Shown here in pieces: positions 352 to 34,267 of a stretch of 64,000 bases of DNA. Each line of letters starts with the position of its first letter. Position 1 is the first letter of the stretch. Made by a program: the position numbers and the translations under genes. Origin of the DNA: Dictyostelium discoideum. Lineage: Eukaryota. Below the pieces are notes generated by a model. That model was not told where the DNA came from. It searched no databases and was given only the letters and a program-made list of their open reading frames with translations. The stretch is from positions 4,960,001-5,024,000 of the forward strand of contig CM000153.2 in the NCBI GenBank assembly GCA_000004695.1, given 5' to 3'.

Positions 352-1950
352 ATGGAAAATCAAAAAAAAAATAATTTTAATCAAATTGATTATTTTAGAT
401 GGGCCGACTATAGTAAAAATAATAATAATAATAATAATAATAATAATAATAATAATATTAATAATAATAATAATAATAATAATAATAATAATATAAATAA
501 TAATATTGATAATAATAATAGTTTTTATCGTTTCATTAGTCCTCCATTTAATAAAATTAATAATAATAATAATGCTAACAATTTCAATAATATAAATAAT
601 AATAATAATAATAATTTTAATAATTATCAACTAAATGATGGCAATAAGATTTCAATTAATAATATTTTAAATGATAATACAACCACTACCAATACATCAG
701 CAAATCAAAACTCTGCTAACACAAACAAAACATATAATTTCTCAAAAAATGAAAATGGAATTGTTTATGAAATTGATAATTTTATATTGGATTCCAATTT
801 AGTTCGTGAACAACCATTCAATAATTTTAATTACCTCAATATAATAAATAATATTCAAAATTTCCTTCAATTAATTTCAGGAAAGGTAGCTATTTAATTT
901 AATAATAGTTAATAATGATATTAAATAAATACTAATTAAATTATACAAAATAATAAGGTAAATTTATTGAATGTTATTTTGGGCATATTGGTTGATGATG
1001 TGAATAGATATTCAGTAAATCCGAATAGTATGTCAATTATTCCATCTGATAATTTTCCAACACCTCAGTTACCACTTGAAACTAATACTGATTTAAATAA
1101 CACTTCAGATTGCTCATCAACTACCTTTTCATCACCTCCATCTTCTGCATTTAATTCACCAAATCTCCAGAATGATTATACTCAACCTCAAAATCAAAAA
1201 TCACAATCCTCAACAATTGTTAAAAAAAATAGTAGTAAAAGCAAATCAAAAAACAATAAACAATCAAAAGATGATGGAGAAACCAATGATGGTGAATCAC
1301 CTGAAATTGAGGAAAAAAGAGTTATAAGATTAGATATGAATCTTAATCCAAATCCAACTATACCAAAAAGAGGTAGACCACTAAAAGTAAGACCATTTGA
1401 GTGCTCCATTTGTAAAATAAAATGTTCAATATATTGGAGAAGAATATTGATTAATGAAGTTCGTACCTCTGTATGTAATGCATGTGGTCTTAGAACAATG
1501 AAAAAAACTAAAAAGGAAAATATAGAAAAAAAAAAAAATAAAATCAGTAATATTTTAAATGACCATAATTCTGAAATAGATAACCAAATAATTATTTATC
1601 TTAATCAAAAAAAAACAACCACTACTACAACAACCACAACAACTTCAAGCACAAATAACCTAAACAATAATAATAATAATAATAATAATAATAATAATAA
1701 TAATAATAATAATAATAATAATAATAATAATAATAATAATAATGATAACAATAATAATGATAACAATAATAATGATAACAATAATAATGATAACAATAAT
1801 AATAATAATAATAATAATAATAATAATAATAATAATAATAATAATAATAATAATGATAATTATAATGATAGTATTTATTCAAGATTGTATAGTGATGATT
1901 ATGAAGATGAATATTATGAAGGTGAAGAATATGAAAATGAAGACGAGTAA
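352..1950 (+). CDS. GATA-type zinc-finger transcription factor, Asn/Thr-rich; proposed model join(352..885,958..1950)
   Basis: ATG at 352. Two same-frame ORFs (352..897 and 967..1950) are separated by a stop at 898. A 72-nt AT-rich interval 886..957 (GTAGCT...TAAG) removes the stop in phase 0. The C-terminal part has a GATA finger CSIC-x20-CNAC followed by a basic KKTKKE tail, and a long (AAT)n poly-Asn tract. The C-terminus is paralogous to the genes at 3061 and 8885 (RGRPxKxxPxxCxxC...YWR...CNxCGL...NILN). Confidence 0.55.
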
Positions 1951-3060
1951 CTATTTAATGGTGGTTCTTTAAAAATTTGGTTGTTTTTTTTTTTATTATT
2001 AATAAATTTGTAATTTTTAAAAAATATATTATAAATCGAATTTATTTTTCACTTTTTTATATTAATTAATCTGGATTTCTAATTAAATTTTTAATTCAAT
2101 ATAAAGTTTATTTTTTTTAATTTAAAAGTGAGAAAATAAAAAAATAAATAATATTAAGTTTATTAAAATACATAATATAAATCATTTTTTTTTTTTTATA
2201 TTTGAATTTGTGGTGTATATATCATTTATGAAAATAGAGAAAATTTAAAAAAAAAAAAAGAAGAAAAAATCAAAAATCAAAATTAAAATGGTTGGATAAG
2301 AAATATTTAAAACTGGTCTTAATGAAAAAAAAAAAAAAAAAAAAAAAAAAAAAAAAAAAAAAAAAAAAAAAAAAATAAAAACAAATTTAAATATTTGGAC
2401 CTATCTCTATTTGTTTTTTTTTTTTTTTAAATCTTTTAAAATTTTTTTTTTATTAAAATAAAATAAATGTTTTTTTTTTATTGACTCTATAAACAAAAAT
2501 ATTATTCAAAACAAAAAAAAAATAAAAAAATAAAAAAAAAAAAAATAAAAAAAATTGAAATTTTATTGATAACCACCCTTTTTTTATTTTTTTTTTATTT
2601 TTAAAAAAAAAAAAAAAAAAATTTTGATCTTAAAAATAATAAAAAAATGGATTTTAAAAATATTAAAAAAATGATCCAAAAAAAAAAAAAAAATATTATT
2701 ACAACCCTTAAATAAAATTTGTAAAAGGTAAAAAAATTTTTTTCAAAAAAAAAAAAAAAAGTTAAATCTCTAATGAAAGTCCACCCAAAATTCTTTTAAA
2801 AAATTCAAAAAAAAATTTTAATCCTTAAAAATACCTATATTTATCCCAAACCCCCAAATTTAAATAAAATAAATTTAAAATAATTTAAAAAAAAAGGGGA
2901 AATTTTTTTTTGGTTTTTTTTTTTCAAAAATTTTTTTTTTTACCCCCAATTCATTAAATTTTTTTTCACAACCCCTTTCCAAACCCATTTTTTTTTTCCC
3001 CTTTTTTAAAAAAAAAAAAAAAAAAAAAAAAAAAAAAAAAAATAATAATAATTTTTTAAA

Positions 3061-30906: not shown

Positions 30907-32544
30907 ATTTTAATAAAATTATTAAAAAATAAAAAAAAATAAATAAACAATAATTAAAAAATTTATATATATTCATAAATTTTATCTTATGACTCTAAAT
31001 GAAAAAAAAAAAAAAAAAAAAAAAAATATTAAAAAAAAAAAAAAATAAACTATAATACTTTTAAAACAAATTTAATTTATTTGTTATTATTATTATTATT
31101 ATTATTATTATTATTATTATTAGTTTATTAAAGGTGAAGTAATTGTTGGAGTTGAGGTTTGAGAATTTATATTTTGTTGTGAGATTTGATTTTGTGAATT
31201 TGTTGAATTAAAGGAGGTTGATGGTAGAATTGTTGGGCTGACCTCATAAGAGGTGGTAGCATTGGTGGCGGTATTTGATGATTTGGAACATTTACGGTTC
31301 TTAATTCATTGCAAAACATTTGAATATCTTTCTCTAGTACAGATTGGATTCAGTGAATCCAAATAAAATAATTCCAATACACAATCATTTATAAAACAAG
31401 TTAATAGTTTCATTTTAGACAACACATTGGTTTGAATTTAATGAACTATATAGAAATCTTATTTTGTATATTACAACCAACAATAATCTTTATTTTTTTA
31501 CTTTTTATTTTTTATTTTTTTATTTATTTATTTTTATTTTTATTTTTATTTTTATTTTTAATTTTAATTATAATTTACATAATAAATCTCTTTTTATCTT
31601 GTCAAATGCTAATGTTGATTGTAGTGAAGTGGAATGACACTATTATTAACACAACCTCTATTATTATGAATATTACTACTACTACTACTACTACTCCTAC
31701 TACTACTACTAATATCCTGATGTTATTGAGGTAATTTTAGATATTTATTGAAATATTTTGATTGTTGATAATTCTTTTTCATGTTTCCTTGGTAGTTCTT
31801 TGATTTATGGGTCAAAGGAACTGATATCATTCTCTTGTTAATTTGGTTTTTATAAATTCTCTTTAATTGGTATTGGTGGTTGTCTGGTGTTATTTTTGTT
31901 GTTGTAGTGTTTTTTTGGTGAAGAGGAAGGTGTAGAAGATTTATCATTATTAGGATTTGGTTATCAATCTTAAGGTTGATTATTTTTTAAATTAGAGTAA
32001 TTTGTTGTTATTGTTATTGTATTACTTTATTGATTAATATTATAAAGTGAAGTGGTAATCCGTAATTATATATTAGTAATAGTTTTGTAATAAGTCATGG
32101 TGTGATGATAGGGATCTTTGGGTGTGTGAGGTGGTGGTGAAATCCTTTGTTAATGGTACTGGTGATGAAATTGGGTGAAAAAAGATCAATTGGATGGTTG
32201 ATTATTGAATTGATTTAGAGTTGGTTGATGATTTGGTTGGGTTTGACATAGTAAACTATATATTGGTTTGATATTGGTTGGATTCAAATTGTTTAAAAAA
32301 AAAAAAAAAAAAATAATAAAAATAAAAAAAAAGTTTTGTTGGCCTAAAGTTGGAGATTTAAAAATGAAAAGAAAAATTTTATTATCATATGATAATGAAT
32401 TAATTATTTTATAATAATTTTGTGTAACTATTTGGTAAAAAATGTTTATTTATTTATTTTTTTATTTTTTTATTATTTTTTTTTTTCCTTCTTATTTATT
32501 TATTTTATTTTTTTTTTTTTATAAAAAAAAAGATTATTTAACTT

Positions 32545-34267
32545 TTAATTTTCTATTTTAATTTGTCTGATGGCTTTTAAACCACAAGCATTACAAAGTT
32601 GACCATTAACCATAGTTTTTATCCAACTTATTGATTCTTTAATGTTACACATTGAACAATTACCAGGTTTTTTTTTTTCCATTCTTTTCATTGTATCAAA
32701 AGGTTCAACTGATTTCGACAAAGAAACTTTTTTTATCCTTTCATAATTAACATACTTTGATTTTCTTGGTATATATTGCTTTTTAACTGTTTCATTTTTT
32801 TTTACGCTTTGTTCTTTTATCAAATTGTTATTATCTTCCTCAGATGATGAACTTTCCCAATTATAATTTTCTTTTTTATTATAATTCATTGAATTATTAT
32901 TAAATAAATTATTATTAATATTATTATTATTAAAATTATTATTATTATTAATAATATTATTAATTGAATTATTATTATTATTATTATTAATATTATTATT
33001 ATTATTATTATTATTATTATTATTATTATTAATATTATTATTATTTTTATTATTATTACTATTATTATTATTATTATTATTATTATTATTATTATTATTA
33101 TTATTATTATTATTATTATTATTATTATTATTATTATTATTATTATTATTATTATTATTATTATTATTATTATAATTATAATTATTATTGTTATTGTTAT
33201 TGTTATGATTATTATTATTATTATTATTTGAATTATTTGAATTACAATCCCCAATTTTATTTTTTTTATTATTATTAAAATAATTATTATTATTGTTATT
33301 ATTATTACTATTATTATTGTTATTATTATTATTATTATTATTATTATTATTATTATTATTATTATTATTATAATTATTATTATTATTTTTATTTCTAGTT
33401 TTTAAAGGAGAATTTGATGAAATAATAGTTGGTGTTGTGGATTGTGATGATTGAGGAGAGATTGGTTGAGAATAATTATTTGGAGAATTGGAAACAACAG
33501 TGGATGGAGTTGCGTTATTTATATTTTCAGTATAGTAAACTGGAAATTGAGGTGATGGAGAATGATGTGATGGTATACATATAGTTTCAGAAGCATTAGA
33601 AAATAAAAGTATATCTTTCTCTAGAGTTTCTTGAAAATAATTTAAATAAAATATTTCAAAAATACAGTCACCAATAAAAGATGTAATTTCAATTATTATT
33701 AAAATATCACTCAATTGATTATTTATTAAATTTTTTTTAAAAATCTAAGGAAAAAAAAAAAGTATACTTATTAATTAGTATTGATTAAATTATTTAATTA
33801 AATTATTTAATTAAATTTTTAAAAAAAAAAATAAAAAATAAAAAATAAAAAAATAAAAAATAATGTTTATTTACCTCATTTGAAATGCATTTTCTGTAGG
33901 AGTTAATACTTTGAATTGATTTTATATGTTCATTAAAATTAAATGGTTGATCACGTACTGAACAAAGATTTTTTAAAAAATTAATACTTGTTAACTTTCT
34001 TTGTAAATTCTCATCGTAGTAAATATTTTTGAGTGATTCATTATTTTTAATGTTGATTGAATTTAAAACATTATTTTGTATAGTTTGATTTGTTGTAGAT
34101 GTGATTGTAGTGGTGTTAGCTGTTGGATAATTACTATTAATGATATTATCAATTGAGAATTTATTTCTATCATTGTTACATTGAGTGTTATCCCAAAAAT
34201 TTTCCTCATTATTTTTATTATTTTTATTATTATTATTTTTATTATTATTAAAATGATTTATGGACAT
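32545..34267 (-). CDS. GATA-type zinc-finger transcription factor (CX2CX17CX2C), extremely Asn-rich; model join(34267..33875,33618..32545)
   Basis: Exon 1 is MSINHF...YRKCISNE, then GTAAAT at 33874. The AT-rich intron ends CTAGAG at 33619. Exon 2 in phase 0 is KDILLFSNASET.... The finger is CSMCNIKESISWIKTMVNGQLCNACGLK near the C-terminus. The intron 3' border is the least certain part. Confidence 0.6.

Follow-up and report, generated by a model that had tools for sequence, protein, structure and literature searches.

Four clustered GATA-finger genes in Dictyostelium discoideum, three of them with a 20-residue finger loop

Among GATA zinc fingers, the spacing CX2CX20CX2C is a named type, type IVc, which accounts for 17% of 5,536 plant GATA domains and is found in fungi too (PMC11608367). 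Loops of 19 or 20 residues (X19-X20) have been called rare in fungi, Ash1p and AoSnf5 being examples cited there (PMC8055810). For Dictyostelium discoideum, the supplementary tables of Forbes et al. (2019) identify DDB_G0286837 as gtaM and DDB_G0286855 as gtaD, list gtaW among the AT-hook factors as well, and give gtaD and gtaM as prespore-specific; gtaD, gtaM, gtaW, and gtaQ had no orthologs in the other four of the five genomes compared (PMC6873476). By our reading of the columns of their Table S3, all four genes peak in mid-development (PMC6873476). Here, we describe a 64-kb stretch of the D. discoideum genome (the window; positions 4,960,001 to 5,024,000 of contig CM000153.2, about 20% G+C) that holds gtaM, gtaW, and gtaQ (genes 1 to 3) and a fourth GATA gene (gene 4), probably gtaD. 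It is very likely that these annotated genes form a conserved local cluster that arose by old local duplications, descends from a module found throughout Amoebozoa, gained a loop of 20 residues (X20) from one of 17 (X17), and consists of two pairs of paralogs. A search of the available literature library found no paper mentioning the loop length of these genes. An earlier note on this DNA, made from its letters, had regarded X20 as outside the norm of the family, a view that the published frequency of type IVc does not bear out.

A six-frame scan of the window for CX2C-X15-22-CX2C found exactly four motifs, one in each of the four genes that had been proposed earlier (Table 1). This loose pattern occurred on average 0.05 times in 200 shuffles, and a strict pattern requiring W and CNxCGL, also found four times, did not occur in 200 shuffles. 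The four-finger observation is real and far above chance expectation. The Cys pairs are spaced X20, X20, X20, and X17 in genes 1, 2, 3, and 4, respectively. The core W and the CN(A/P/E)CGL helix start are present in all four genes and the basic tail in genes 1 to 3. Gene models were assembled from GT/AG sites and the reading frame. The intron positions of gtaW and gtaQ are correct because the spliced models translate exactly to AX4 proteins. Gene 1 was named from the gene order gtaM-gtaW-kinase-gtaQ together with Tables S2 and S3 of Forbes et al. (PMC6873476). The three X20 genes had been described as tandem; they do not form a simple array, since gtaQ is inverted and a protein-kinase gene separates it from gtaW.

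The X20 loop consists of 7 residues, W, 2 residues, and 10 residues, versus 7, W, 2, and 7 in X17 fingers. In HMMER alignments with the PDB chains of GATA-3 (expectation value [E] of 2.8e-11) and GATA-1 (E of 1.7e-10), both Cys pairs were aligned, CSIC or CYVC being paired with the first Cys pair of GATA-1/-3, and a gap of three residues fell after WRRG. A MAFFT alignment with amoebozoan relatives carrying X17/X18 loops put the three extra residues in the same place, after WRR(G). The loop of gtaM holds a fifth Cys (KIKC), kept in its D. cf. discoideum ortholog, and the earlier note had itself named, as something that would refute its claim, the case in which this Cys makes a finger of standard size, X20 then being an artefact of the wrong choice of Cys. 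When the KIKC Cys is taken as the ligand, the spacing becomes CX3C-X16-CX2C, which is not a standard one. Of the family members examined, none but gtaM and its D. cf. discoideum ortholog carries that Cys, and X20 is found with no extra Cys in genes 2 and 3 and in some 15 relatives. Such an artefact is therefore extremely improbable, and the three fingers do have a genuine 20-residue loop, as had been claimed.

The 69-residue gtaQ module was modelled with AlphaFold from an alignment of 11 sequences, and the model had a mean predicted local distance difference test (pLDDT) score of 80. It folds the 20 loop residues, with a 6+6 beta-hairpin, WRRGTD-NG-VVVDLC (residues 28-33 and 36-41), followed by a helix from CNEC, and superposes on GATA-1 with 1.1 Å over 35 residues and on AreA with 2.0 Å over 36. 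Because the alignments place the gap after WRRG and the model folds these residues as a hairpin, the three extra residues are predicted to elongate the second beta-hairpin. In solved GATA complexes, the bases are read by the helix and the TxxW turn. The earlier note had supposed that the long loop might alter the geometry of DNA binding; by their placement in the model, the extra residues would lie away from both the helix and the turn.

The fingers were then compared with Pfam GATA (PF00320), whose gathering score is 26.8 bits. The alignment proposed earlier gave a mixed result. Both gtaW (33.5 bits at full length and 36.5 bits for the isolated finger segment) and gtaQ (36.6 and 39.6 bits) lay above that score; gene 4 reached 27.3 bits as an isolated finger and had no match in the full-length scan; and the gtaM finger, at 21.1 bits (E of 2.4e-4), fell below it. 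Full-length gtaM had no Pfam GATA match, nor was a Pfam match recorded for the 461-residue protein called for its D. cf. discoideum ortholog. For annotators, this is a caveat: since the gathering score misses gtaM, and gtaD in a full-length scan, family counts in Dictyostelia can be too low.

In genes 1 and 2 the finger is part of a larger module, defined here by alignment and consisting of an AT-hook, the GATA finger, and SIxxLN. On one side of the finger stands K(K/R)GRP, about eight residues upstream; on the other follow a basic tail and, about 25 residues past CGL, SIxx(I/V/L)LN. In gene 3 the hook is degenerate and the tail is kept, and gene 4 has neither. The KKRGRPSK of gtaW scored 16.7 bits against Pfam AT_hook (PF02178; cut-off, 17.4 bits), and at the hook position gtaQ has KERPPR versus KGRPP in its D. 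cf. discoideum ortholog. The earlier statement that genes 1 to 3 end with RGRPxK and N(I/V)LN thus stands for the tail motif, present in all three, and fails for the hook of gtaQ and for the end of gtaM, which continues for about 129 residues beyond NILN.

An HMMER scan of 1.84 billion representative proteins with a profile of the three fingers gave 1288 hits with an E of <= 1e-3, 26 of them with an E of <= 1e-10. A search of a 5.8-billion-protein collection with the profile of the three-finger alignment returned eight candidates, none significant. Apart from one 131-residue environmental sequence from ENA, all X20 members came from D. discoideum strains (including gtaT of AX4), D. cf. discoideum, D. 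citrinum, D. firmibasis, and D. dimigraforme. D. purpureum has a gtaM-like X21 finger. Cavenderia, Acytostelium, Synstelium, Heterostelium, Physarum, and Mastigamoeba have the same flanks, with X17/X18 loops and TPEW. Because the same flanks accompany X17/X18 loops across Amoebozoa and long loops occur in the D. discoideum/D. purpureum branch, the module appears to be old and the long loop a recent change in that branch, from an X17/X18 ancestor.

Two environmental proteins, P0015 (the ENA sequence, from a metagenome contig; X20) and P0029 (JGI/IMG; 132 residues; X21), have the RGRP-finger-SIxxLLN module with the ancestral TPEW. Since their long loops occur with TPEW, the loop may have lengthened more than once, in uncultured amoebozoans.

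Outside the module, gtaW and gtaQ have in common a homologous first exon, an N-terminal region (BLASTP, 36% identity over 108 residues; E of 3e-19), and a phase-0 intron placed after ...F(V/I)Y(E/K)N, as the earlier note had seen. That note had extended the exon 1/intron architecture to all three paralogs; gtaT belongs with these two, and gtaM has neither that exon, nor the intron, nor the N-terminal domain. AlphaFold predicts two helices in gtaQ, from residues 40 to 72 and 80 to 117 (pLDDT by block, 86 to 95), and the intron lies inside the first. Conservation of this region extends to gtaW, gtaT, and relatives, and a Pfam scan found no family match for it. These three genes share an uncharacterised domain, confidently predicted to be a two-helix hairpin, with a conserved intron within helix 1.

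The closest comparison is with gtaT (DDB_G0280639, GATA zinc finger domain-containing protein 20) and with the gtaQ/gtaW-like genes of D. cf. discoideum, D. citrinum, D. dimigraforme, and D. firmibasis, which have the N-terminal helical domain KSxRExxIH...FIYKN-AxRH (hyphen, intron) and a phase-0 intron in the same place. They also have the K(K/R)GRP hook, the X20 loop TPYWRRGTDxGxxVDLCNAC, and the tail to NVLN. The chromosome that carries gtaT is a different one, the identity of gtaT to gtaQ is 49%, and the linkers differ in length and composition. An origin of the gtaT locus and this cluster by a segmental duplication carrying GATA, kinase, and Tgr genes was considered and dropped, the kinase adjacent to gtaT being of a different kind.

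The earlier note held gene 4 to be an unrelated, canonical GATA gene. Its X17 spacing is canonical, but it has SISWIKT instead of TPxWRR, and it lacks the AT-hook and the basic tail. Outside the finger it is collinear with gtaM (Smith-Waterman score of 136 versus 51.7 +/- 9.1 after shuffling; z = 9.2; 0 of 1000 shuffles), and BLASTP between the two gave an E of 1e-7. They share VR(E/D)QPFN (VREQPFN/VRDQPFN), ISGK-V/ISNE-I at the intron (hyphen, intron), and IIPSDNFPTPQLP/CIPSHHSPSPQFP (gtaM/gene 4), as well as the pattern IPSxxxPxPQxP, and their phase-0 introns lie at the same aligned place. Lacking the N-terminal domain of gtaW and gtaQ, gtaM aligns with gene 4 instead. The two fingers are mutually nearest, with 15 of 27 residues identical. 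A neighbor-joining tree placed gene 4 within the long-loop clade, joining it to gtaM with 47.5% bootstrap support and to the X21 protein of D. purpureum with 74.5%. An independent canonical gene that merely lies nearby would account for the X17 loop, for the missing RGRP and SIxxLN tail, and for an isolated finger barely above the Pfam GATA threshold; it would leave the collinearity, the common motifs, the shared intron place, the nearest finger, and the absence of a canonical TPxWRR unexplained, and we regard it as improbable. As judged from these comparisons, gene 4 appears to be the closest paralog of gtaM, and it is solely through gtaM that it is tied to the AT-hook-GATA-SIxxLN family. Because it is nested in the long-loop clade and akin to gtaM, its X17 loop is most simply explained as a secondary deletion of three residues, probably together with loss of the hook, WRR (now WIK), and the tail; support for this is moderate.

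At the syntenic locus of D. cf. discoideum, gtaQ, the kinase gene, gtaW, and gtaM occur in the same order and relative orientation, with the same introns, and all three fingers are X20; the exon/intron structure of gtaM and the position of the kinase gene are likewise equivalent. Within the module, 2 of 67 residues differ between the two species in gtaW and 8 of 71 in gtaM. The ratio of nonsynonymous to synonymous substitutions (dN/dS, Nei-Gojobori, versus D. cf. discoideum) was 0.36 for gtaM, 0.66 for gtaW, and 0.48 for gtaQ, compared with 0.19 for the neighbouring kinase gene. The GATA proteins thus seem to evolve fast yet under some constraint. Such values, together with the subthreshold gtaM finger, the absence of a Pfam GATA match for full-length gtaM and gtaD, WIK in place of WRR and the missing basic tail in gtaD, and the lack of orthologs beyond D. 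discoideum in the five genomes compared (PMC6873476), could mean that the long-loop fingers, or at least gtaM and gtaD, have lost GATA DNA binding and are drifting duplicates or protein-interaction modules. However, the open reading frames, splice sites, four Cys, W, CNxCGL, RGRP, and tail are intact, 63 of 71 residues of the gtaM module and 65 of 67 of that of gtaW are kept between species, overall dN/dS is below 1, and gtaD and gtaM are reported to be expressed and prespore-specific (PMC6873476). Loss of binding is consequently doubtful.

The reading favoured here is a cluster of GATA genes of common descent. All four would derive from the Amoebozoa-wide single-finger module, with its KRGRP AT-hook eight residues upstream, type IV finger, basic tail, and C-terminal SIxx(I/V/L)LN, old local duplications having produced the four-gene cluster. 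Three residues would have been added to the later half of the loop in the lineage of D. discoideum and its nearest relatives, taking it from X17 to X20 (X21 in D. purpureum) and making the second beta-hairpin longer, and the residue ahead of the conserved Trp would have become Tyr. One pair would then comprise gtaW and gtaQ (with gtaT, on the other chromosome), which have the helical-hairpin N-terminal domain split by one phase-0 intron, and the other gtaM and gtaD, with a different N-terminal region and a common phase-0 intron of their own; in gtaD, the loop would subsequently have shrunk by three residues and the AT-hook and tail would have disappeared.

As for function, the finger helix (from CNxC) and the TxxYW turn would recognise a GATA-like core from the major groove, as in the DNA complexes of GATA-1, GATA-3, and AreA. 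The AT-hook RGRP and the C-terminal basic tail may occupy adjacent AT-rich minor grooves, an arrangement suited to an AT-rich genome, and the N-terminal helical hairpin may mediate oligomerisation or partner binding. In GATA-1, the hairpin side carries the residues that contact partners. Because the hairpin lies on that side, its elongation would be likelier to affect contacts with the backbone or with partners than the reading of bases. For altered specificity, the Tyr found here ahead of Trp is a better candidate than the hairpin; in fungal AreA, that position is a known determinant of specificity. We can offer only tentatively a broader scenario, itself rather unlikely, in which the X20/X21 loop and the Tyr before Trp are an innovation of group-4 Dictyostelium that altered site preference, spacing tolerance, or partner binding and was then amplified locally, supplying lineage-specific developmental regulators such as the prespore-specific gtaM and gtaD.

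Several points weigh against the scheme as a whole. The models of genes 1 and 4 have no exact database match: exact look-ups and homology searches alike failed to recover either protein from the two large protein collections, which do contain gtaW and gtaQ. For gtaM, the D. cf. discoideum ortholog was called at 461 residues, versus 483 in the present model. Gene 4 is only probably gtaD, the name resting on its DDB number and its adjacency to gtaM in the tables of Forbes et al. (PMC6873476). The node joining it to gtaM has a bootstrap value of only 47.5%, from an alignment of about 60 columns. Few substitutions (dS, 0.11 to 0.22) underlie the dN/dS values, which are themselves fairly high. Binding of DNA and zinc is ascribed to the modules by analogy, and gtaM, with a finger at 21.1 rather than 26.8 bits, and gtaD, which has WIK for WRR and lacks the basic tail, may be altogether unable to bind GATA sites.

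Beyond the GATA genes, the window holds three copies of a segment of about 970 nucleotides, one of them inverted, each with a short-chain dehydrogenase open reading frame. They are 94-99% identical, pointing to a recent local triplication. In D. cf. discoideum, the syntenic locus carries a transposase-like gene of the DDE_Tnp_4 type (L001, 2431-3193, minus strand) and two short-chain dehydrogenase genes versus three in the window; the interval beside gtaQ therefore appears structurally unstable. Tgr-type genes with IPT/TIG domains lie between the GATA genes, and Tgr-like genes are also found beside gtaT (locus L003) and beside the gtaT-like gene of D. cf. discoideum (locus L002). The remaining features are listed in Table 1.

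Table 1. Positions of the GATA genes, their motifs, and neighbouring features in the window (aa, amino acids; ORF, open reading frame)
Feature	Position	Strand	Details	Evidence
Gene 1, gtaM (DDB_G0286837)	352..1950	+	Exon 1 352-885, phase-0 intron 886-957, exon 2 958-1950; 508 aa	GT/AG sites, frame
gtaM DNA-binding module	1366..1560	+	AT-hook core KRGRPLK 1366-1386; finger CSIC-X20-CNACGL 1402-1491; basic tail to SNILN 1501-1560	
Finger motif, gene 1	1402-1485	+		Six-frame scan
Gene 2, gtaW (DDB_G0286839, GATA zinc finger domain-containing protein 23)	3061..4091	+	Exon 1 3061-3213, phase-0 intron 3214-3356, exon 2 3357-4091; 295 aa	Exact match XP_637521.1 / Q54L82
gtaW region homologous to gtaQ helical hairpin	3142-3213 + 3357-3497	+		
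gtaW module	3891..4088	+	KKRGRPSK 3891-3914; finger CYVC-X20-CNPCGL 3930-4019; tail to IHNILN at C terminus 4029-4088	
Finger motif, gene 2	3930-4013	+		Six-frame scan
Protein-kinase gene between gtaW and gtaQ	6020..7204	-	Outside GATA family; synteny marker	Pfam Pkinase 225 bits
Gene 3, gtaQ (DDB_G0286843, GATA zinc finger domain-containing protein 17)	8885..10116	-	Exon 1 10116-9931, phase-0 intron 9930-9770, exon 2 9769-8885; 356 aa	Exact match XP_637523.1 / Q54L80
gtaQ module	8888..9079	-	Degenerate AT-hook KERPPR 9079-9062; finger CYVC-X20-CNECGL 9046-8957; tail to IKNVLN 8947-8888	
Finger motif, gene 3	9046-8963	-		Six-frame scan
gtaQ N-terminal helical hairpin	9605..9999	-	aa 40-117; intron after aa 62	AlphaFold
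Segment copies of ~970 nucleotides	12058-13030, 17086-18058, 18513-19477			
Short-chain dehydrogenase ORFs in the copies	12112-12996 (+), 17120-17989 (-), 18558-19442 (+)			
Tgr-type genes	22659-28428			IPT/TIG domains
TIG hits	22659-23966, 24153-25142	-		
TIG + Ig_TgrO1	25885-28428	+		
Counting-factor-associated-protein-like gene	30193-30906	+	Just upstream of gene 4	Pfam CfaA_B_C 106 bits
Gene 4, probably gtaD (DDB_G0286855)	32545..34267	-	Exon 1 34267-33875, phase-0 intron 33874-33745, exon 2 33744-32545; 530 aa	GT/AG sites, frame
Gene 4 finger	32658-32578	-	CSMC-X17-CNACGL; protein end 10 residues past CGL	
Finger motif, gene 4	32658-32584	-		Six-frame scan
tRNA-Phe (GAA)	39193-39266	+		
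Large ORF	42236-44752	-	ComC supersandwich, DUF7034, DUF7035, DUF7949	

With the genes annotated, the expansion of the family published, and X20 a recognised type, the observation is real but fairly ordinary, and its wider significance is limited. What the present analysis adds is where the extra residues probably lie and when they were gained (on the branch of D. discoideum and D. purpureum, starting from X17/X18), the description of an AT-hook-finger-SIxxLN module found across Amoebozoa, and the division of the cluster into two paralog pairs.

Three known systems can be set beside this locus. The first is type IVc itself, to which the Dictyostelium fingers might be homologous, given their equal spacing and the occurrence of that type widely in plants (PMC11608367) and, more rarely and with X19/X20 loops, in fungi (PMC8055810). 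In the window genes, the 10 residues that follow W and 2 form the longer half of the loop. The bamboo class C-like motif has an X18-type second half, MRRGPTGPRSLCNAC, and the class C consensus carries its extra residues ahead of the W/M position. Because the plant form keeps an X18-type second half and has its insertion in the opposite half of the loop, a comparison based partly on that consensus, the Dictyostelium X20 loop appears to be independent of plant class C, and a common origin was rejected. The accessory domains of the plant proteins differ as well, since a Pfam scan found neither CCT nor TIFY in the proteins of the window genes. With the nearest relatives being amoebozoan X17/X18 proteins that have the same AT-hook and tail, there is no sign of a common origin with the plant proteins, and homology with type IVc is scarcely credible. 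The second system is the C-terminal finger of vertebrate GATA-1/-3 (PDB 3vd6, 4hc7, and 3dfv) and fungal AreA (2vus), where, as predicted here, a type IV treble-clef finger is followed by a basic tail (HMMER E of 2.8e-11 to 6e-3). Those proteins differ in having X17 loops, Leu in place of Tyr ahead of Trp, and neither AT-hook nor SIxxLN, and each vertebrate protein has two fingers. The third comprises the amoebozoan homologs, Cavenderia fasciculata DFA_07776, Heterostelium album XP_020428116 ("GATA-binding transcription factor"), and those of Acytostelium, Synstelium, Physarum, and Mastigamoeba. Like the window genes, they have KKRGRP (here eight residues ahead of the finger), CxxC...TPxWRRG...LCNACGL, the basic tail, and SIxx(I/V/L)LN; these single-finger AT-hook/GATA proteins have X17/X18 loops and TPEW, whereas the window genes have X20 loops and T(P/S)YW, with three extra residues past WRRG.

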